A DNA stretch of 64,000 nt, from NCBI GenBank assembly GCA_965197745.1, contig CBDANS010000006.1, positions 512,001 to 576,000 on the forward strand. The letters are read 5' to 3'. The notes below the pieces were generated by a model. The model was not told where the DNA came from. It saw nothing but the letters and a program-made list of their open reading frames with translations, and did not search any database. Source of the stretch: Opitutales bacterium (GTDB taxonomy: Bacteria; Verrucomicrobiota; Verrucomicrobiia; Opitutales; PNEW01). Shown piece by piece: positions 11,145 through 58,587 of this stretch (positions are counted from its first letter, which is position 1; each line of letters opens with the position of its first letter). Position numbers and translations under genes: made by a program.

Positions 11145-12494
11145 TGGAGTGACCCCCAAAAATGGTATCATTAACAGAGAGAGGTTATCGGGATAAACAG
11201 ATAACCTCATGAAAAGAAAAAGATACACAACAGAACAGATCATCGCAATACTGCGGCAAGCCGATACCGGAAAAACGGTAGAGGAAATCTGCCGAGGCAA
11301 CAACGTGAGTGAACAGACCTTCTATCGCTGGGGTAAAAAGTATGGCAATTTGGAACTAGCCGATGCGAAGCGATTTAAAGAGCTGGAAAAAGAAAACACC
11401 GAGTTGAAGAAGATGCTCGCTGATCAAATGCTTAAGAATCAGGTAATGGAGGAAACGCTGTCAAAAAAGTGGTGAGCCCCAAGCAGAAGAAGCGAGTAGT
11501 AAAAGATGCGGCTGAGAGAGGGCTGTGCTCGTTGCGAAGGGCTTGTTCCTACCTCAGCCTCAGTTGGTCAACTTTCAGCTACCAGCCCAAGCAGGCCAGT
11601 AAGAAAGCTCAGCGGTTGGCCGAGCGGATTATAACCCTGTCCTGGGAACATCCCTGCTACGGTTACCGGCGCATCCGTGCCTTGCTCGTAAAGGAAGGCT
11701 GGACAACAAACAGGAAGTTTGTTCAGGCGGTACGACGTTCAGAAGGGTTGCAGGTAAAGCCACCTAAAAAGCGTAGACACCGTCAAGGGGTCTCTACGGG
11801 GTCGCCTACTAAAGCAACCGGTCGCAATCACCTTTGGTCCTGGGACTTTGTCCATGATCGCACAGACCATGGCGGTCCATTAAAGATGATGACTCTGATC
11901 GATGTACCGAGGAGCTGAAAGCGACGACACTCAAGCGAAGCGAAGCCATATACGCGTGAATGTCTGGATATCCGGGTAGCTCGTCAACTCCCCTCATCGG
12001 ATGTCCTCTCTGTGCTTAGCGAGGCCATTGAAAAGGAGGGAGCTCCCAGCTATATCCGTAGTGACAACGGCAGTGTTCCGAGGAGCGAAGCGACGACATG
12101 CGAAGCCATTCATTGCTCATCAAGTGCAGCAGTCGTTGTCCGACAAAAAGATCAAGGCGATATATATCGATCCGGGCAGTCCCTGGCAAAACGGTTTCAT
12201 CGAGTCGTTTCACAACCGCTTACGCGATGAGTGTTTGAACCGTGAAGTGTTGCTCAGCGTGGCTGAAGCACAAGTTGTAATCGAACAATGGCGCCAGACC
12301 TATAACCATGATCATCCCCACAGTCGATTAGGCTTTAAAAGCCCACAAGAGTTTGTCACATTCCTTTCAGATCCTGGCCGCGTTCGGGCTACGCCCTCAC
12401 TTCGCCAAGATCTCTCATATACATCAATCCTAAAACCATTAATACCCGGGAACTCTCTCACTTAATAATTGGTACGAAAAACGGGGTCCAATCA
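11145..12494 (+). mobile_element. IS3-family element lineage A, copy 1 (orfA 11209-11475; orfB interrupted by two micro-insertions)
   Basis: TG...CA ends TGGAGTGACCCCCAAAAA / ACGGGGTCCAATCA; A6G slippery site at orfA/orfB; WSWDF, SDNG, PGSPWQNGFIESFH motifs. Confidence 0.93.
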
Positions 12495-17544: not shown

Positions 17545-17868
17545 TGATGAACCTGGTCGGACCTCGTTATTCGTACCAATTATTAAGTGAGAGAGTTACC
17601 GGGTGTTAATGGTTTTAGGATTGATGTATATGAGAGATATTGGCGAAGTGAAGGTGTAGCCCGAACTGTTGTAGAATTGCTCAATGTCTGAAATGTCGTC
17701 GCTCATGGATGTATTCAAATGCCAAGATATACCAACAGGCTTTTAAGATTGCCTACGCTACTTAGATATAAAGTCAAAAGGTTAAAATCGCAAATGCCCC
17801 TACAGCTTAGCATTGTCGAGCGTCAGATCGCGATGAGAGCGTTTTGATGGGTTGGGGCAGGAGTGACC

Positions 17869-19910: not shown

Positions 19911-21261
19911 TGGAGTGACCCCCAAAAATGGTATCATTAACAGAGAGAGGTTATCGGGATAAACAGATAACCTCAATGAAAAGAAAAAGATATACAACAG
20001 AACAGATCATAGCAATACTGCGGCAGCCCGATACGGGCAAAACCGTGCAGGAAGTCTGCCACGGCAACAACCTAAGTGAACAGACCTTCTATCGCTGGGG
20101 CAAAAAGTATGGCAACTTGGAGCTGGCTGATGCGAAGCGATTTAAAGAGCTGGAAAAGGAGAATACGGAGCTGAAGAAGATGCTCGCTGATCAAATGCTC
20201 AAGCTTCGGGTGTTGGAGGAAACGCTCTCAAAAAAATGGTGAGCCCAAAGCAGAAGAAGCGAGCAGTAAAAGATGCGGCTGAGAAGGGGCTGTGCTCGTT
20301 TTAGAGGGCTTGTGCTTATCTCAGCCTCAGTTGGTCAACGTACAGCTACCGACCCAAGCAGGCCAGTAAGAAGGCTCAGCAATTGGCCGAGCGGATTTTG
20401 ACCTTGTCCTGGGAACATCCCCGTTACGGTTACCGGCGCATTCGTGCCTTGCTGGTGAAAGAAGGTTGGGCGGCAAGCAGGAAATTTGTACAGGCAGTGC
20501 GACGTTCTTCGGGCTTACAGGTAAAGCCCCCGAAAAAGCGTAGACACCGTCAGGGGATCTCTACTGGGCTCCCTACTAAAGCAACCGGTCGCAATCACGT
20601 CTGGTCCTGGGACTTTGTCCATGATCGTACAGACAATGGCGGTATGCTAAAGATGATGACCTTGATCGATGTACCGAGGAGCTGAAAGCGACGACACTCA
20701 AGCGAAGCGAAGACATATACGCGTAAATGTTTACGCATCCGGGTAGCTCGACAGCTCACCTCAACCGATGTTCTCTCGGTACTCAGCGAAACCATCGATG
20801 AAGAGGGAGTTCCTAGCTATATCCGCAGTGACAACGGCAGTGTTCCGAGGAGCGAAGCGACGACATGCGAAGCCATTCATTGCTCATCAGGTGCAGCAGT
20901 GGTTGTCCGACAAAAAGATCAAGGCGATATATATCGATCCGGGCAGTCCCTGGCAAAACGGTTTCATCGAGTCGTTTCACAACCGCTTACGCGATGAGTG
21001 TTTGAACCGTGAAGTGTTGCTCAGCGTGGCTGAAGCACAAGTTGTAATAGAACAATGGCGTCAGACCTATAACAATGAACATCCCCACAGTCGATTAGGC
21101 TTTAAAAGCCCACAAGAGTTTGTCACATTCCTTTCCGCTCTTGGCCGCGTTCGGGCTACGCCCTCACTGCGCCAAGATCTCTCATATACATCAATCCTAA
21201 AACCATTAACACCCGGTAGTTCTCTCACTTAAAATTTGATACGAAATACGGGGTCCGATCA
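19911..21261 (+). mobile_element. IS3 lineage A, copy 2 (orfB with early TAG and two micro-insertions)
   Basis: Same TIRs and ORFs as 11145-12494. Confidence 0.93.
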
Positions 21262-27084: not shown

Positions 27085-28143
27085 GCGGTTAAAGCGGATG
27101 CTGGCGGACAAGCTGCTGGGGATAGAGATTCTGCAGGAGACCCTCGAAAAAAAACGGTAAGCCCTGGGCACAAGCGGCAAGTGGCAGAGAGACTTGTGGC
27201 CCGGGGCCAGTGTTCGATGCGTGGAGCGTGCCGATACTTTCACCTGCACCGCTCCACCTATGCGTATCGGGCGAAGTATCCGGATGCCTGGCTAACGAAA
27301 CTGAAGGCGGCAGTAAGGCGGTTATCACGGCAATACGCGAGGTGGGGCTATCCGAAGATCACGAAGCTGTTGAAAGACGAAGGCTGGGAGGTGGGTAAAC
27401 GTCTCGTGCAACGTCTACGACGCGAACTGGCCCTGGCGATCCCCCCACGCAAGCCAAGACGTCGGCGCAGGGGTGTTTCCACCGGGCTGCCGACCAAGGC
27501 CGAACATCCCGACCCTGTTTGGACCTGGGATTTTATCCACGACAAAACGGTCCGCGGTGGCAGTTTAAAAATGTTGACCATGCTCGATGAGTACACCCGC
27601 GAGTATCGAGTGATCCATGTTGATCGCCATATCAATGCGGAAACGGTGCGCGGTATCATGCAAAAACTGCTCGACCCTCATGGGCCGCCACAATATATTC
27701 GCAGCGACAACGGTTCCGTTCCGAGGAGCGAAGCGACGACATGCAAAGCCATTCATTGAAAAGGAATTGAGAGCCTGGCTAACTGCGATGAAAATCAAAA
27801 CCCTCTATATCGAACCAGGAAGCCCTTGGCAGAACGGATACATCGAATCGTTGCATGCCCGTTTTCGCGAGGAGTGTTTAAACCGTGAACAGCTATGGAC
27901 TTTGACCGAAGCCCGCGTGGTGATCGAGGACTGGCGCTGGCTTTACAATAATGTCCGACCCCACCGCAGCCTCGGCAATATCACCCCACGGTGCTTCGCT
28001 GAAGACATTAATACCGAAGGCTTGGGCTCCATTCGGGCTACGCCCTCATTGCGCCCAAGCCTTGACTTCCTCTACCAACTTAACTTCAACATTAACCTCT
28101 CCAGACTAACTCTCTCGGTGGACCAGTTTACGTAACCCGATCA
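27085..28143 (+). mobile_element. IS3 lineage B, 5'-truncated copy
   Basis: Near-identical to the corresponding part of 57271-58587; IRR GTGGACCAGTTTACGTAACCCGATCA. Confidence 0.9.
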
Positions 28144-39942: not shown

Positions 39943-40055
39943 CCGGAGTATTGCTATGATCTGTTCTGTTGTGTATCTTTTTCTTTTCATTGAGGTTATC
40001 CGTTTATCCCGATAACCTCTCTCTGTAAATGATACGATTTTTGGGGGTCACTCCA
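39943..40055 (-). mobile_element. IS3 lineage A left end fragment
   Basis: Reverse complement of IRL plus MKRKRYTTEQIIAIL. Confidence 0.85.
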
Positions 40056-40735
40056 AGGGCTTCAGAATATCGACGAAGAAAACAGAATCAGCAGCATTGC
40101 AAGAGACTCTCGTTGCCGTTTTAGGCAATGATGTTCCAGGCGTTCAAAAACTGCTCGCTGATTATCTTCTGAAAATTGAAGCCCTGCAGATAGTCTTGGG
40201 AAAAACCATCTAAGCGCGGAGCGATAGCGTGGCGTTGTTGAATTAGCTCAGCAGGCATTGTCGTGTTCGTAGTGGGCTCTATACCGCTGGCGGAGATTCA
40301 GCAGCTTGACCCTGCCCACCGCTTCAAACCTGTAACCGATAAGAAGCCGTTGCTGGTGACTGCAATCGTTTGCCTGTCACGGAAACACTTAACCATTGGC
40401 TACAAAAATTCAATCAAATGCTGGGTGAAATAGTCTCCTAGGTAAACAAGAAACAGGACTGCACATACGCCGCTAAGAGGGACTGCCAGTATCGCTGTAA
40501 AAACTTCGAAAGCAACTACAGCGACCTGTCCACGGGTATGCCTCAAGAGGCCAAACACAGGAATCACGTGTAGGCGTGGGATTTCGTTTAGGACTACACC
40601 CAAAGTGGCGGCAAACTGCGTGTTTTCAGCATCATCGATGTACCGAGGAGCCGCAGGCGATGACACTCGAGCGAAGCGAAGACATAACCACGTGAATGCC
40701 ATATGCTTCATGCACACAGCGCGATCAAGGCAGCC
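40056..40735 (+). mobile_element. Highly degenerate IS3 (fourth lineage, D)
   Basis: EEENRI.., LLAD..LKIEALQ, NHV.AWDFV.D.T..GGKL.VFSIID remnants. Confidence 0.7.
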
Positions 40736-42070
40736 TGGTCGGGTTAAGCAAACTGGTCCACCGGGAGAGTTAGTCTGGAGAGGTTAATGTCGAAGTTAAG
40801 TGGGTAGAGGAAGACAAGGTTTGAGCGCGTAGACCGAATGGAGACCGAGCCTTCTGTATTGAGGTCTTCAGCAAAGCGCCGTGGGGTGATATTGCCGAGG
40901 CTGCTGATGGGGGGCGGACATGATGGTAAAGTCAGCACCAGTGCTCGATCACAACGCGTGCTTCGGTTAAAGTCCATAACTGTTCACGGTTTAAACACTC
41001 CTCGCGAAAACGGGCATGGAAAGATTCGATGTATCCGTTCTGCCAAGGACTTTCTGGTTCGATATAGAGGGTTCTTATTTTCATCGCAGCCAGCCAGGCT
41101 CGCAATTCCTTTTCAATGAATCGCTTCGCATGTCATCGCTTCGCTCCTCGGAACGCAACCGTTGTCGCTGCGAATATATTGTGGCGGTCCATGCCTCTCG
41201 ATCATTTTTTGCATGATACCGCGAACGGTTTCCGCGTTGATATGGCGATCGACATGGATGACCGGACATTCGCGGGTCTACTCGTCGAGGATGGTCAGCA
41301 TTTTGAGACTCCCACCGCGGACCGTTTTATCGTGGATAAAATCCCAGGTCCAAACATGGCCGGGATGTTCGGCTTTTGTCTGCAGGCCGGTGCAGACACC
41401 CCTGCGTCGGCGTCTTGGCTTGCGTTGGGGGATCGCCAAGCCCAGTTCACGTCGCAGACCTTGCACGAGACGTTTACCCACATGCCAGCCTTCGTCCTTC
41501 AACAGCTTCGTGATCTTGGGATAGCCCCACCTGGCGTATTGCCGTGATAACCGCCTTACTGCCGCCTTCAGTTTCGTTAGCCAGGCATCCGGATGCTTGG
41601 CCTTATACGCATAGGTGGAACGGTGCAGGTGAAAGTATCGGCACGCTGCACGCATCGAACACTGGCCCCGAGCCACAAGTCTCTCTGCCACTTGCCGCTT
41701 GTGCCCAGGGCTTACTACCGAGCGTAAGCGACATCTACCATTTTTTTTCGAGGGTCTCCTGCAGGATCTCTATCCCCAGCATCTTATCTGCCAGCATTCT
41801 TTTTAGCCGCACGTTCTCCTTCAAAGAGCTCTTTCATCCGCTTGGCCTGGTTGACATCAATCATTCCAAACTCACGCTTCCAGCGGGGGAAGGTCTGTTC
41901 GCTGACGTTGTTCTCCCGGCACACTTCCTGGATCGATTTACCCCTGTCTGCTTGCCGCAATATCCGTATCTTCTCTTCGGTGGTGTATTTTTTTGCCTTT
42001 CATTGTCTGAGTCCTTTCTAGGTTACCCAGACTAACTTTTCAAGTGTACCAGTTTTCGTGGTCACGACCA
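40736..42070 (-). mobile_element. IS3 lineage B, full length but degenerate
   Basis: Both TIRs present; many indels versus 57271-58587. Confidence 0.9.
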
Positions 42071-42339
42071 CCAGTGATGAAAATATACTCCAATGATATC
42101 CAGCTACAGATAATGATTTCATGGTAAATCACATTGATTATAATTACTAAGCTTCGAACTAAGCCGATAGACTTAATCAGAAGTAAGTAGTAATTTGTTG
42201 GTATTTTAAAAAATAGTCAAAATGATTGGACTGCTATGAGTCACAAGTCCCACCAGAACTTACCATCGTTTCGAGTTATTAGCACATATCGGTGTTGGCC
42301 ATTGAATGGTATACCACCCCGTCGGATCTAAAACTGACT

Positions 42340-42415
42340 TTGGTACAGTAAACGGGAGCAGGTCACACTCGGAATCTCTCTCACTTAAACTGGTACGAAT
42401 AACGGGGTCCGATCA
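42340..42415 (+). mobile_element. Two tandem orphan IS3 right ends (lineage C-like, then lineage A)
   Basis: TGGTACAGTAAACGGGAGCAGGTCA then TGGTACGAATAACGGGGTCCGATCA. Confidence 0.7.
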
Positions 42416-48542: not shown

Positions 48543-50660
48543 TCAGTAGTTTGACCGGCTACGATCAAAAAAGAATTGTTCGGGTCGGGCAATGCCGGGG
48601 GTTTGCAAGGTTGCGCTGTTGGGTGCAACATCGGGAACATTTCGAAAATTATTTTTAACCACGACAACGCCGTTCAAAGCAGGTGTCTGTCCGACGGTGC
48701 CAATAACATACAGGTTGTTTGAATGGATTCTCCACAATTCTTTTCCCAGTTCCGTACGCATCGCTTTGGGTAGACTATTACCTTCCTCAAATATCTCCAG
48801 CAAATGTTTAAGATCGCCGGAAGGCGCCACGCCCTTTTGACCGTCAGTTAAATACCATAAGCCGATGAGCGGGGCGAAAGCACCGCGAAGGATAGGTATG
48901 GTCATATTGGGGTAAGTCCACGGGTTTTCAGAACCGCCACTATACCCCATGTTAAGTTGGTGTTCGTTGTTTCCTCGCCGTCTACCATAGTAACCTCCCC
49001 CTTCAACGCTTAAATGTAATTTTAGGCCGACATCATTCCAATGATTCACGAGAAGTTCAGCTATACTTTGAAAATCTACTAACGCCTGAGTCGGTATTGA
49101 GAGGGTAATCGTCAGACGTTCGTTATTGTCAGTGCGCAGGCGGTATCCTTCACTGTCCTTTTTATCTAAACCGATAGCGTCGAGGATCGCGTTGGATTGT
49201 TCCAGGTTGCGAACCGCATGCTTTTTCTCATATTCAGGACCGGGATAATACGGGTTGTTCGGGAAGGGGAGGAAGGCTCTTGGCTTGCCCATTCCAAGAA
49301 AAATCGATTCGTGTATCTCCTCTCGATCAATGGCAAGAGAGAGGGCTATCCGAAAATCGCGGCTTCTAAGCCACTTTTCTATTTCGGTATCTCCACGCCA
49401 GGTTTGGTTAACATAGATGATGCCGTCGGAACCTCCTAAATTTGGCCAGAAGAGTACGCGGTAGTCACCCTTGTCTGCTTCCCGCTTGAGCACCGGGACT
49501 TTGTCTAAACGGATATGACGATGTTGCATATCCACCTCCCCGGCCATGACGCGTGCATTGAACACCTCGGTGTCCTCAAAGAAGCGCATAACAATCTTGT
49601 CGATATAGGGAAGCTGATTCCCTTCGGGATCGACGGCAAAGTAATAGGGGTTGCGCTCCAAAGAATAATTTTCACTGGTTATCGGAGTGACCATCTTCCA
49701 TGGCCCGACCACCGGTATTTCACGGTTCCTGTGGGGTGAGGCCATGCGTTTGAAGAGTTGCACCCAACTTCTGTCCCCCGTTGCTTTTATTTTATTTTGC
49801 AGTTCACTTAAGGGGGTGTACTTCGGGAGAAACTGCATTAAGTAATGCCAGGGAGCGTAGAGAGGACTTTCCCATCGGCGAACGAACTGGCCACCAACGT
49901 TTAAACCAGCAACATTCTCGATGAACACATAGTTGGGTTTATGAAAGGTATAACGAACTGTGGTCTCATCTAACTTTTCCACTTTGAATAGTTGCCCATT
50001 CGCTTTTGTGTAGCTGAATTTTACCGGGTTGATATTATCATTCAATGTTACATCTTCGAAGGCGAAAACAAAGTCATCAGCCGTGAAAGGCGCTCCATCA
50101 GACCACTTCATTCCCTGGCGCAGATGGAAAGTGAATGTTGTCCCGTCTTCGCTGATATCCCATGATTTTGCGATGTGAGCCATCAGGGCATAGCCATCGA
50201 GGTCAAAGTAAATTAAGTGATCATGTATAATCCGATCCATGTTGTTAGTATCAAGCCCCGTAAAACCGCGGCGCCAGGTGCCGCCGTATTGACCGATGCG
50301 TTCGATAGGCGGAATAATCAATGGCTCTTCCGGCAGGCGGTCTTCTACCGGAGGCAATTCCCCCGCGGCAACGCGCTTCGCCAGTTCAGGAGCTTCACTG
50401 AATGTCGTGGGTGTCGGACCCTTATAAATAAAACTGAATCCCTCAGTACTGACATATTCAGGCTGAGTTACTTCAGGTTCGTGTGAAAGTGAAGGTGGAG
50501 CATCCCTGGAACAACCGAACGGATTACTTATTATAAGAATTAAGAAAAAAACAAGTGACCCCCAATCGATTGCCGATTGCGGATTTGGAAGATGTCGGGC
50601 TTCGCCCTCGGTACTGATTGCGGATTGATCAGAATGCACGATACAGGATCCATGATGCAC
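48543..50660 (-). CDS. ABC transporter peptide-type (family 5) substrate-binding lipoprotein, orphan; true start uncertain
   Basis: FGC lipobox-like, EAPELAKRVAAGELPPVEDRLP, FHLRQGMKWSDGAPFTADD, ERNPYYFAVD. Confidence 0.88.
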   Translation of the reverse strand: MHHGSCIVHSDQSAISTEGEARHLPNPQSAIDWGSLVFFLILIISNPFGCSRDAPPSLSHEPEVTQPEYVSTEGFSFIYKGPTPTTFSEAPELAKRVAAGELPPVEDRLPEEPLIIPPIERIGQYGGTWRRGFTGLDTNNMDRIIHDHLIYFDLDGYALMAHIAKSWDISEDGTTFTFHLRQGMKWSDGAPFTADDFVFAFEDVTLNDNINPVKFSYTKANGQLFKVEKLDETTVRYTFHKPNYVFIENVAGLNVGGQFVRRWESPLYAPWHYLMQFLPKYTPLSELQNKIKATGDRSWVQLFKRMASPHRNREIPVVGPWKMVTPITSENYSLERNPYYFAVDPEGNQLPYIDKIVMRFFEDTEVFNARVMAGEVDMQHRHIRLDKVPVLKREADKGDYRVLFWPNLGGSDGIIYVNQTWRGDTEIEKWLRSRDFRIALSLAIDREEIHESIFLGMGKPRAFLPFPNNPYYPGPEYEKKHAVRNLEQSNAILDAIGLDKKDSEGYRLRTDNNERLTITLSIPTQALVDFQSIAELLVNHWNDVGLKLHLSVEGGGYYGRRRGNNEHQLNMGYSGGSENPWTYPNMTIPILRGAFAPLIGLWYLTDGQKGVAPSGDLKHLLEIFEEGNSLPKAMRTELGKELWRIHSNNLYVIGTVGQTPALNGVVVVKNNFRNVPDVAPNSATLQTPGIARPEQFFFDRSRSNY

Positions 50661-52959: not shown

Positions 52960-54309
52960 TGATGTGACCCCCAAAAACCGTATCATTTACAGAGAGAGAT
53001 TATCGGAATAAACAGATAACCTCAATGAAAAGAAAAAGATAACCAACAGAACAGATCATATCAATACTGCAGCAAGCCGATACCGGCAAAACGGTAGAGG
53101 AACTCTGCCGTGGTAACAACCTAAGCGAACAAACCTTCTATCGCTGGGGTAAAAAGTATGGCAACTTGGAGCTGGCCGATGCGAAGCAATTTAAAGAGCT
53201 GGAAAAAGAAAACACCGAACTGAAGAAGCTGTTGCTGATCAAATGATCAAGAACCAAGTCTTGGAGGAAACGTTCTCATAAAAAGGGTAAGCCCAAAGCA
53301 GAAGAAGCGAGCAGTAAAAGATGCGGCTGAGAGAGGGCTGTGCTCGTTTTAGAGGGCATGTTCCTATCTCAGCCTCAGTTGGTCAACGTTCAGCTATCGG
53401 CCCAAGCAGACTAGCAAGAAAGCCCAATGATTGGCCGAGCGGATTGTAACTTTGTCCTGGGAACATCCGCGCTACGGTTATCGGCGCATCCGTGCCTTAC
53501 TGGTAAAGGAGGGCTGGACAACAAGCAGGAAGTTTGTCCAGGCAGTACGAGGTGCAGAGGGCTTACAGGTAAAGCGAACGAAAAAGCGCAGCCCCCGTCA
53601 AGGGGTCTCAACAGGGCTCCCCACTAAAGCAAAAGAACGCAATCACGTTTGGTCCTGGGACTTTGTCCATGATCGCACAGACAATGGCGGTCCATTAAAG
53701 ATGATGACCTTAATCTATGAATACACACGTATATGTTTAAGCCACCGGGTAGATAGACAGCTCACCTCAACCGATGTCCTCTCTGTGCTTAGCGAGGCCA
53801 TCGAAGAGGAGGGAGCTCCTAGCTATATGCGTAGTGACAACGGCAGTGTTCCTAGGAGCGAAGCGACGACATGCCAAGCCATTCATTGCTCATCAAGTGC
53901 AGCAGTGGTTGTCAGACAAAAACATCAAGGCGATCTATATCGATCCAGCCAGTCACTGGCTACCGAGCGAAGCGACACCTCAACGAGCCATAGCGAGAAT
54001 AACAAACGGTTTCATCGAGTCGTTTCACAACCGCTTACGCGATGAGTGTTTGAACCGTGAAGTGTTGCTCAGCGTAGCTGAAGCGCAAGTGGTAATCGAA
54101 CAATGGCGTCATAATTACAATAATGAACATCCCCACAGTCGTTTAGGCTTCAAAAGCCCACAAGAGTTTGTCAGATTCCTTTCCGATCTTGGCCGCGTTC
54201 GGGCTACGCCCTCACTTCGCCAAGATCTCTGCTATACACCAATCCTAAAACCATTAACACCCGGTAACTCTCTCACTTAAAAATTGGTACGAATAACGGG
54301 GTCCGATCA
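52960..54309 (+). mobile_element. IS3 lineage A, copy 3 (degenerate; two micro-insertions)
   Basis: TGATGTGACCCCCAAAAA...ACGGGGTCCGATCA; stops in orfA and orfB. Confidence 0.92.
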
Positions 54310-57270: not shown

Positions 57271-58587
57271 TGGTCGTGACCACGAAAACTGGTCCACTTG
57301 AAAAGTTAGTCTGGTCCAACTAGAAAGGACACAGACAATGAAAGGCAAAAGATACACGACCGAAGAGAAAATACGGATGCTGCGCCAGGCGGACAAAGGG
57401 AAAACGATCCTGGAAGCATGCCGCGAGAACAACATAAGCGAACAGACCTTCCACCGCTGGAAACGTGAGTTTGGGATGATTGATGTCAACCAGGCCAAGC
57501 GGATGAAGGAGCTCGAGAAGGAGAACGCGCGGTTAAAACGGATGCTGGCGGACAAGATGCTGGGGATAGAGATCCTGCAGGAGACCCTCGAAAAAAAACT
57601 GTAAGCCCTGGGCACAAGCGGCAAGTGGCAGAGAGACTTGTGACTCGGGGCCAGTGTTCGATGCGAGCGGGGTGCCGGTACTTTCGGCTGCACCGTTCCA
57701 CCTATGCGTATAGGGCCAAGCATCCGGATGCCTGGCTAACGAAACTAAAAGCGGCAGTAAGGCGGTTATCACGGCAATACGCGAGGTGGGGCTATCCCAA
57801 GATCACGAAGCTGTTGAAGGACGAAGGCTGGCAGGTGGGTAAACGTCTCGTGCAAGGTCTGCGACGTGAACTGGGTCTGGCGATCCCCCCACGCAAGCCA
57901 AGACGCCGGCGCAGGGGTGTCTGCACCGGGCTACCGACAAAGGCCGAACATCCCGACCATGTTTGGACCTGGGATTTTATCCACGATAAGACGGTTCGCG
58001 GCGGCAGTCTAAAAATGCTGACCGTGCTCGATGAGTACACCCGCGAGTGCCGGGTGATCCATGTTGATCGCCATATCAATGCGGAAACGGTGCGCGGTAT
58101 CATGCAAAAACTGCTCGACCGGCATGGGCCGCCAAAATATATTCGTAGCGACAACGGTTCCGTTCCGAGGAGCGAAGCGACGACATGCAAAGCCATTCAT
58201 TGAAAGCCAATTGAGAGCCTGGCTAACTGCGATGAAAATCAAAACCCTCTATATCGAACCAGCAAGCCCTTGGCAGAACGGATACATTGAATCGTTCCAT
58301 GCCCGTTTTCGCGAGGAGTGTTTAAACCGTGAACAGTTATGGACTTTGACCGAAGCCCGCGTGGTCATCGAAGATTGGCGCTGGCTTTACAATCATGTCC
58401 GACCCCACCGCAGCCTCGGCAACATCACTCCACGGCACTTCACTGAAAACCTCAATACCGAAGGCTCGGGCTCCATTCGGGCTACGCCCTCATTGCGCCC
58501 AAGCCTTGACTTCCTCTACCAACTTAACTTCAACATTAACCTCTCCAGACTAACTCTCCCTGTGGACCAGTTTGTGTAACCCGACCA
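57271..58587 (+). mobile_element. IS3 lineage B, full length (orfA 57338-57604; orfB broken only by a 32-nt insertion)
   Basis: TGGTCGTGACCACGAAAACTGGTCCAC / GTGGACCAGTTTGTGTAACCCGACCA; A8 slippery run; DDE motifs. Confidence 0.94.

Follow-up and report, generated by a model that had tools for sequence, protein, structure and literature searches.

The window, a 64,000-nt stretch of the genome of an Opitutales bacterium, carries an insertion sequence at positions 57271 to 58587 whose transposase gene is split by a 33-nt insert, here called ins1. The features of this copy are as follows.

57271..58587 (+): IS3-family element of lineage B1, with TG..CA ends
57338..57604 (+): orfA, 88 aa, HTH_Tnp_1, intact; ends in an A8 run overlapped by the orfB frame
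57625..58162 (+): N-terminal part of orfB, HTH_21 plus rve to profile position 77/102; last residues YIRSDNGS
58163..58195 (+): ins1, 33 nt, TTCCGAG..GCCA, in place of the AG of the DNG-S-E-F Glu codon
58196..58579 (+): C-terminal part of orfB, FIESQLRAW.., with rve_3 and the catalytic Glu region; frame shifted +1 from the N-terminal part

Host elements of ins1 belong to the IS3 family, with an rve-containing orfB, a helix-turn-helix orfA, an A-rich run at the overlap, and TG..CA ends. The 3′ end of orfA reads GAAAAAAAACTGTAA, and by inspection of the sequence the orfB frame is open through this slippery run. Pfam searches with the intact copy L157 returned HTH_Tnp_1 for orfA (3.6e-20) and rve (1.7e-22), rve_3 (4.2e-26), and HTH_21 for orfB, while in the copy at 57271-58587 the rve core is broken at profile position 77/102, past the second catalytic Asp. 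The initial annotation, made from the window alone, had found no other lesion in this copy, and comparison with intact copies agreed, the other differences being a silent TTC/TTT change and one base at the right end. The net +31-nt frameshift it had described also held, while the boundaries it had drawn, a 32-nt insert within an original GAA TTC, did not. Because uninterrupted relatives read GAG TTY (9/9 sites examined, three other genera included), the unit is 33 nt long (58163-58195, with a CCA end) and takes the place of AG. This insertion shifts the frame by +1 and parts the two catalytic Asp residues from the catalytic Glu, and a carrier can no longer make transposase.

A pattern search of the window allowing ≤3 mismatches recovered the motif in the six copies named earlier (12076+, 20843+, 27719+, 41122−, 53849+, and 58163+, with 0, 0, 0, 2, 1, and 0 mismatches, respectively), compared to an expectation of 0.00 and a maximum of 0 in 100 dinucleotide shuffles. 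All six lie between G and ATTC, downstream of GAYAAYGG plus five bases and upstream of ATTYAT. Besides the copy described above, the ins1 units are as follows.

12076..12108 (+): ins1 in a lineage A2 copy (IS 11145-12494)
20843..20875 (+): ins1 in a lineage A1 copy (IS 19911-21261)
27719..27751 (+): ins1 in a 5′-truncated B-type copy (about 27085-28143)
41121..41153 (−): ins1 with 2 mismatches in a B3-type copy (IS 40736-42070, minus strand)
53849..53881 (+): ins1 variant TTCCTAGG..GCCAAGCC in an A-like copy (IS 52960-54309)

As originally proposed, these carriers fall into two clearly distinct IS3 lineages, A and B, with different terminal repeats. Lineage A termini read TGGAGTGACCCC.. and lineage B termini TGGTCGTGACCAC.., and the IS ends seen were TGGTCG..CGACCA and TGGAGTG..GATCA. 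A-type ends at 40030-40055 (−) and 42391-42415 (+) flank the B3-type copy at 40736-42070, which suggests that 40030-42415 is one IS nested inside another. An additional A-type end is present at 17554-17578 (−).

In the whole genome of this bacterium (4.45 Mb in 7 contigs, 92% complete), 73 copies of ins1 were found, all 73 of them in the Glu codon of DNG-S-E-F in an IS3-family orfB and none elsewhere, with orfB flanks that make up about 19 sequence types. Two sister-genus genomes contained 12 and 14 copies, and none were found in 38 other genomes of the order, including one of the same family (82% complete). The exact ins1 pattern occurred in one record of a species-representative genome collection, an Opitutales metagenome-assembled genome, and in 0 stretches of JGI metagenome contigs. 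Searches of Rfam at permissive thresholds with the IS or with a repeat-rich locus returned only chance-level snoRNA matches.

Copies without the insert were also identified. When the two halves of orfB were searched against the genome by tblastn, 105 adjacent pairs were recovered, 67 with an insert-sized gap and 19 contiguous; ins1 was present in 70 of the 93 orfB copies that could be anchored at the site. Lineage B1 consists of 9 filled and 4 empty copies with a DNA identity of ≥99.5%, and the two states differ as AG followed by TTT (empty) versus the 33-nt unit followed by TTC (filled). Two of the four empty copies (C7:1352654-1353939 and C7:408025-406740) are fully intact, encoding an 88-aa orfA product and a 307-aa orfB product with the uninterrupted motif ..SDNGSEFIES... 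A search with the intact orfB protein in 81 genomes of the order found at least 9 full-length uninterrupted B copies at 92 to 93% identity in the sister-genus genome G002, as well as uninterrupted relatives in three further genera. Lineage A in G002 includes one insert-free copy and another with only a different insert, ins5. An intact donor acting in trans, one of the options first raised for how disabled copies could have multiplied, is therefore supported by the two intact B1 copies here and by the at least nine B copies and one A copy uninterrupted in G002.

Most carriers are dead as autonomous elements for more than one reason. All 15 B2 copies have gained an extra base in orfA (CTC GA GAAGG to CTC TTT GAAGG), and all 24 of the near-identical A1 and A2 carriers (15 and 9 copies) also contain ins5, whose in-frame TGA stops the frame. 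In total, 39/70 carriers are in groups whose members all have a second frame-breaking lesion, and three or four inserts are present in several copies. Only in 5 B1 copies is ins1 the sole lesion. Intact B1 copies, which have ends of the same type, can supply transposase for lineage B. For lineage A no intact copy was found in this 92%-complete assembly despite the 24 A1 and A2 carriers, and their multiplication could reflect trans-mobilization by a lost or unassembled master copy or hits that followed each transposition.

The orfA change is an observation in its own right. The GAG state is found at 57513-57517 and the TTTG state at 41816-41834 (−) in the window, and both recur genome-wide in B1 and B2. 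Two bases are replaced by three in a +1 frame change that overlaps a CTCGAG site, and the two states are present among filled and empty B1 copies and in B2, a distribution incongruent with that of ins1 (a four-gamete violation). The change from GA to TTT was considered as an excision footprint and rejected, as it misfits the target rule of the insert family described below.

Comparison of ins1 with its host genes provides a relative age. Mean pairwise identity of the 73 inserts was 0.981, compared to 0.58 to 0.78 in four 33-nt flanking blocks, bearing out the first impression from the window that the insert is better conserved than its surroundings. Fifty-one of the 73 copies are identical, and recurrent changes occur only at positions 12 and 27 (for example, window positions 58174 and 58189). 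These positions are the third base of each GCGAAGC motif, with G replaced by A in 5 and 13 copies, respectively; each is the G in a CG pair and, in the mini-hairpin, the first base of the loop. The orfB genes of B1, B2, and B3 differ by a dS of 0.11 to 0.34, with dN/dS values of 0.10 to 0.46, on both sides of the insert, and the A and B proteins share about 40% identity in the N-terminal part and about 53 to 54% in the C-terminal part, with catalytic motifs kept. The IS lineages thus diverged as working genes under purifying selection. Roughly 4 to 10 changes would be expected in a neutral 33-mer of the age of the splits within lineage B, and saturation in one dating from the A/B split, yet A and B copies of ins1 differ at 0 to 1 of 33 bases. 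Because of this, ins1 must be much younger than the lineages or extremely constrained, and extreme constraint fails as an explanation because functional copies and all outgroups are without it. These data show that ins1 recently entered several already-separate IS3 lineages, at the same position each time. Repeated invasion of one site, the last of the three options that the initial annotation had listed, follows from an insert so much younger than the lineage splits.

A genome self-comparison for short gaps between otherwise similar repeats revealed that ins1 is a member of a family of 24- to 45-nt inserts. The family plan is 5′-T(A/T)CCGAG, a short hairpin, (C)GAC(GAC)A(T/C), a variable piece, and CCA-3′, with the final CA present in all. 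Members in IS3 sites (ins1 to ins5) stand in for a target A, AA, or AG, and filled/empty pairs were found at four IS3 sites other than that of ins1. At these sites, ins2 (44 nt) has the target ccctggc/AA/aacgg, a net gain of +42, and is in frame in lineage A; ins3 (25 nt) replaces 2 bases just past the A8 slippery run, antisense to the IS, for a net gain of about +23; ins4 (37 nt) has the target cgcgatg/AG/tgtttg and a net gain of +35; and ins5 (44 nt) has the target gatcgatg/AA/tatacg, a net gain of +41 or +42, and an in-frame TGA. Family members in the window besides ins1 are as follows.

11905..11948 (+): ins5 (TACCGAGGAGCTGAAAGCGAC..CCA, 44 nt) in the A2 copy, with in-frame TGA
20672..20715 (+): ins5 in the A1 copy
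41716..41740 (+): ins3 (25 nt) in the B3 copy, antisense to the IS, after the A8 run
53961..54004 (+): ins2 (44 nt) at the SPW/QNG motif of the A-like copy at 52960-54309, net +42
50586..50613 (−): type-I member TACCGAG-GGGCGAAGCCC-GACATCTTCCA, outside any IS, in a short tandem array

A pattern built from the family plan matched a further 83 members, termed type I, of 24 to 35 nt in the genome. These occupy the 3′ arm of the abundant GTCATTGCGAGG..GCAATCCAGG hairpin repeats or are embedded in AACCCTG heptamer arrays and other short arrays. Perfect stems of at least 3 bp are present in 35/83 members, compared to 2.5 in shuffled sequences, and comprise at least 10 different stem sequences. ViennaRNA predicted no fold for ins1 as DNA (z scores of +1.1 to +1.8), and the energy model likewise gave no stable DNA fold for ins2, ins3, or ins5. 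The GCGAAGC motif, present twice in ins1, has been described as a stable DNA mini-hairpin. With a degenerate pattern, about 12 recognizable family members were present among the 121 metagenome matches listed, the rest being chance. AACCCTG arrays in which a type-I insert replaces AA were seen at C5:500022, C7:1485969, and C7:1565302 of genome G000, and arrays with a type-I insert also occur in environmental contigs (metagenome loci L044, L087, L088, and L094). Another IS3-type lineage is represented by two identical, decayed copies, at C4:33092 and C5:224348 of G000, that lack ins1 and have an ins4-like insert (TACCGAGGAACGTAGT..) at the homologous downstream site.

Taken with the age of ins1, this family makes it probable that ins1 is a 33-nt nonautonomous insert that recently and repeatedly disabled IS3 orfB genes at one codon. 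The mobility of ins1 itself is a property we infer from its relatives. Within close lineages, ins1 may travel with IS copies that are trans-mobilized by intact, insert-free ones, and it may also pass between copies by exchange. For arrival at the same site in different lineages, an enzyme provided in trans would insert the element in an element-specific, single-strand manner that depends on its hairpin. The start TTCCGAG is unique to ins1 in the family, and the same heptamer already exists in the empty B site (GG TTCCGAG TTT), which suggests that ins1 arose in lineage B and moved to lineage A as a unit.

Several features are suggestive of inheritance or of exchange among copies. The A27 variant is present in 9/9 filled B1 copies, which shows inheritance or conversion in B1 rather than fresh hits there. 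TTC stands beside the insert in filled B1 and B2 copies and TTT in empty B copies, as a conversion tract would leave them. Chimeric copies with an A/B junction exactly at ins1 were found in opposite orientations at C7:1673745 (−) in G000 and at locus L005 in G001, and the dS between A1 and A2 drops from 0.67 before the insert to 0.07 after it. Because the chimera junctions and this shift in dS both fall at ins1, the insert appears to act as a recombination point, a 33-nt island of identity at which otherwise diverged IS lineages would recombine. In a B-type copy at C6:1393328, the 5′ part of ins1 (TTCCGAGG) is fused to the 3′ end of ins4 (GAAGCGCTCA), and roughly 250 nt between the two sites are deleted; because of this junction, tiny inserts can be said to recombine with each other.

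These features invite another account, in which a single founding insertion was passed on exclusively through ectopic recombination or gene conversion and ins1 never had mobility of its own. Such an account would fit the single site of all 73 copies, the association of A27 with B1 and of TTC with the insert, the chimera junctions in both directions, the deletion joining ins1 to ins4, and the change in dS between A1 and A2. We nevertheless consider it unlikely. The five bases to the left of ins1 remain lineage specific (CAGTG, TTCCG, ATCGG, or TTGCG), and a conversion tract would have to stop at the edge of the element every time. On the left, A and B flanks are homologous over only about 22 nt, with mismatches, and on the right over only 8 nt. 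In addition, family members reside in many unrelated targets, which conversion cannot produce. The initial annotation had named, as grounds for abandoning its reading, an intact insert-free copy together with a short conversion tract shared by A and B. Such a copy does exist, but because the five left bases stay lineage specific, plain gene conversion explains the A/B sharing poorly.

A second alternative is that ins1 serves as a programmed recoding cassette, where a +1 frameshift or ribosomal hop would yield low, regulated amounts of transposase. The downstream frame is indeed +1, both frames are open through the insert, the insert has a GAGGAG and the two GCGAAGC motifs, five B1 copies have no other lesion, and conservation is high. 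When the sequence is read, GCG occurs as a codon in frame 0 and again 10 nt away in the landing frame. This alternative is nonetheless very improbable. Copies that are intact and multiplying, and all relatives outside the family, have no insert; sister inserts elsewhere cause net gains of +35, +41, and +42, one with an in-frame TGA; and a second frame-breaking lesion is present in every copy of the groups that account for 39/70 carriers. To our knowledge, ins1 contains no shift-prone codon pair of the kind known from prfB or T4 gene 60. ins1 thus proved to be a disabling insertion rather than a recoding signal.

Removal of the insert from the transcript like an intron is scarcely credible. Contigs that skip the insert do occur in an RNA-library run, but their joint reads AG or AGTTT. 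This is the empty allele of the genome, seen also in the assembly and in a run of DNA type. Clean excision would instead leave a 2-base deletion because the element replaced AG, and there is no Rfam match. The same RNA-library run also contains an insert-bearing A-lineage contig; the public runs were read as contigs, so that both alleles are visible, with same-locus change, RNA ends, and splicing beyond their resolution. The suggestion of recoding or splicing made alongside the other two options therefore found no support, as functional copies are insert free, most carriers are otherwise broken, and the joint is the empty allele.

For the reading we favor, that of a mobile nonautonomous insert, candidate sources of an enzyme were sought in the genome. 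Seven small GIY-YIG genes were counted here, and the sister genomes have 7 and 6; an insert-free genome of the same family has none, only a UvrC-sized match. Other genomes of the order that lack the insert contain small GIY-YIG genes as well. Of the seven genes here, four have inverted GTCATTGCGAGG repeats on both sides (about −120 and +100 nt), compared to a genome-wide density of 0.1 such repeats per kb. These four genes, all in G000, are as follows.

C7:483646-483864: repeat-framed small GIY-YIG gene
C7:1542004-1542222: repeat-framed small GIY-YIG gene
C7:1545659-1545877: repeat-framed small GIY-YIG gene
C6:787949-788140: repeat-framed small GIY-YIG gene

Two of them form a near-identical inverted pair 3.4 kb apart, and the layout resembles that of an insertion sequence. 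Type-I inserts are nested in 3/4 of the flanking repeat sets, and ins1 itself does not flank small GIY-YIG genes. Repeat-flanked small GIY-YIG genes are only a lead to the source of the enzyme. The published SRM search motif was not enriched in the genome (16 matches, versus 19 in a control read backwards), and ins1 with its flanks had no match to it on either strand. The single Y1_Tnp match in the genome had no family member beside it, and no consistent candidate gene was framed by type-I elements.

A further proposal, which we regard as speculative and doubtful, is that insertion sequences have sequence-directed hyperparasites in these tiny inserts, or that the host keeps the inserts as an anti-IS tool, with a trans-acting, hairpin-specific enzyme at work. 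This enzyme, possibly one of the small GIY-YIG nucleases with flanking repeats of the same system, would cleave the empty GAG-TTY site or install the element there as a single strand.

The closest published analogues are the SDRs of cyanobacteria, the RPEs of Rickettsia, and tagged REPs. SDRs, reported by Elhai et al. in 2008 from Nostoc and its relatives, are said to be tens of nucleotides long, with a hairpin that shows compensatory changes, and to occur inside heptamer arrays, small mobile elements, and insertion sequences, reportedly with filled and empty sites in closely related copies. We know of no enzyme or mechanism found for them since that description. The inserts described here are similar in being tiny repeats in heptamer arrays, hairpin repeats, and insertion sequences with filled/empty pairs. 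Hairpin potential is evident in the type-I relatives (35/83 versus 2.5) and not, by the energy model, in ins1. The inserts differ in belonging to another phylum and another sequence family, in their length of 24 to 45 nt, in replacing an A-purine target dinucleotide, and in the restriction of the ins1 subfamily to a single IS3 transposase codon across many lineages.

RPEs and intragenic REPs are short palindromic repeats inside protein-coding genes that are mostly in frame and tolerated. Di Nocera et al. (2013, PMC3733652) report that intragenic GTAG REPs are most numerous in Opitutus terrae, a member of the same order as our bacterium, and that CGTC REPs end in a CCA tail, an ending that the tiny inserts share. 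In contrast, ins1 adds a net +31 nt and destroys its gene, and only ins2 (+42, in lineage A) is in frame. There is also no GTAG tag 5′ of the hairpin, the element starts with TACCGAG, and no RAYT association was found here. By eye only, TGTC/CGTC on the reverse strand adjoins the hairpin.

Another comparison concerns NTS/SRM hairpin repeats, which small GIY-YIG nucleases, the Ssn proteins, cleave in single-stranded form (PMC11893778). The GTCATTGCGAGG..GCAATCCAGG repeats of this genome resemble the NTS (CGTCATT..AATCYRG), and their framing of GIY-YIG genes mirrors the NTS-ssnA-NTS arrangement given there (PMC11893778). Ssn proteins are nucleases that are not known to have joining activity, and no link of ins1 to such genes was found. 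A likeness to intron and intein homing is also apparent, as one sequence occupies a conserved catalytic codon of diverged homologues, filled and empty alleles coexist, and the flanking TTC marker may be cotransferred with ins1. Unlike introns and inteins, ins1 has no coding capacity, ribozyme, or splicing, and as a result the host gene is destroyed.

Within the open-access literature searched, no prior description of tiny inserts in Opitutales or of tiny inserts that target insertion sequences was found. What is distinctive here is the replaced A-purine pair, the out-of-frame loss of the gene, and the use of one catalytic codon across IS3 lineages. Mobile DNA shorter than about 50 nt is barely understood, and the mechanism in this case is directly testable. 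The system has unusually clean features: 73 matches at one codon, filled and empty alleles among copies with an identity of ≥99.5%, a plan and target signature common to all five insert types, and the synonymous divergence of the host insertion sequences as an independent clock. If the hyperparasite proposal is true, every new IS3 copy would be hit at the codon of the catalytic site and the lineage silenced, in effect homing without an intron and a kill switch for transposase. This case also shows that an element even smaller than an IS can inactivate whole IS families.
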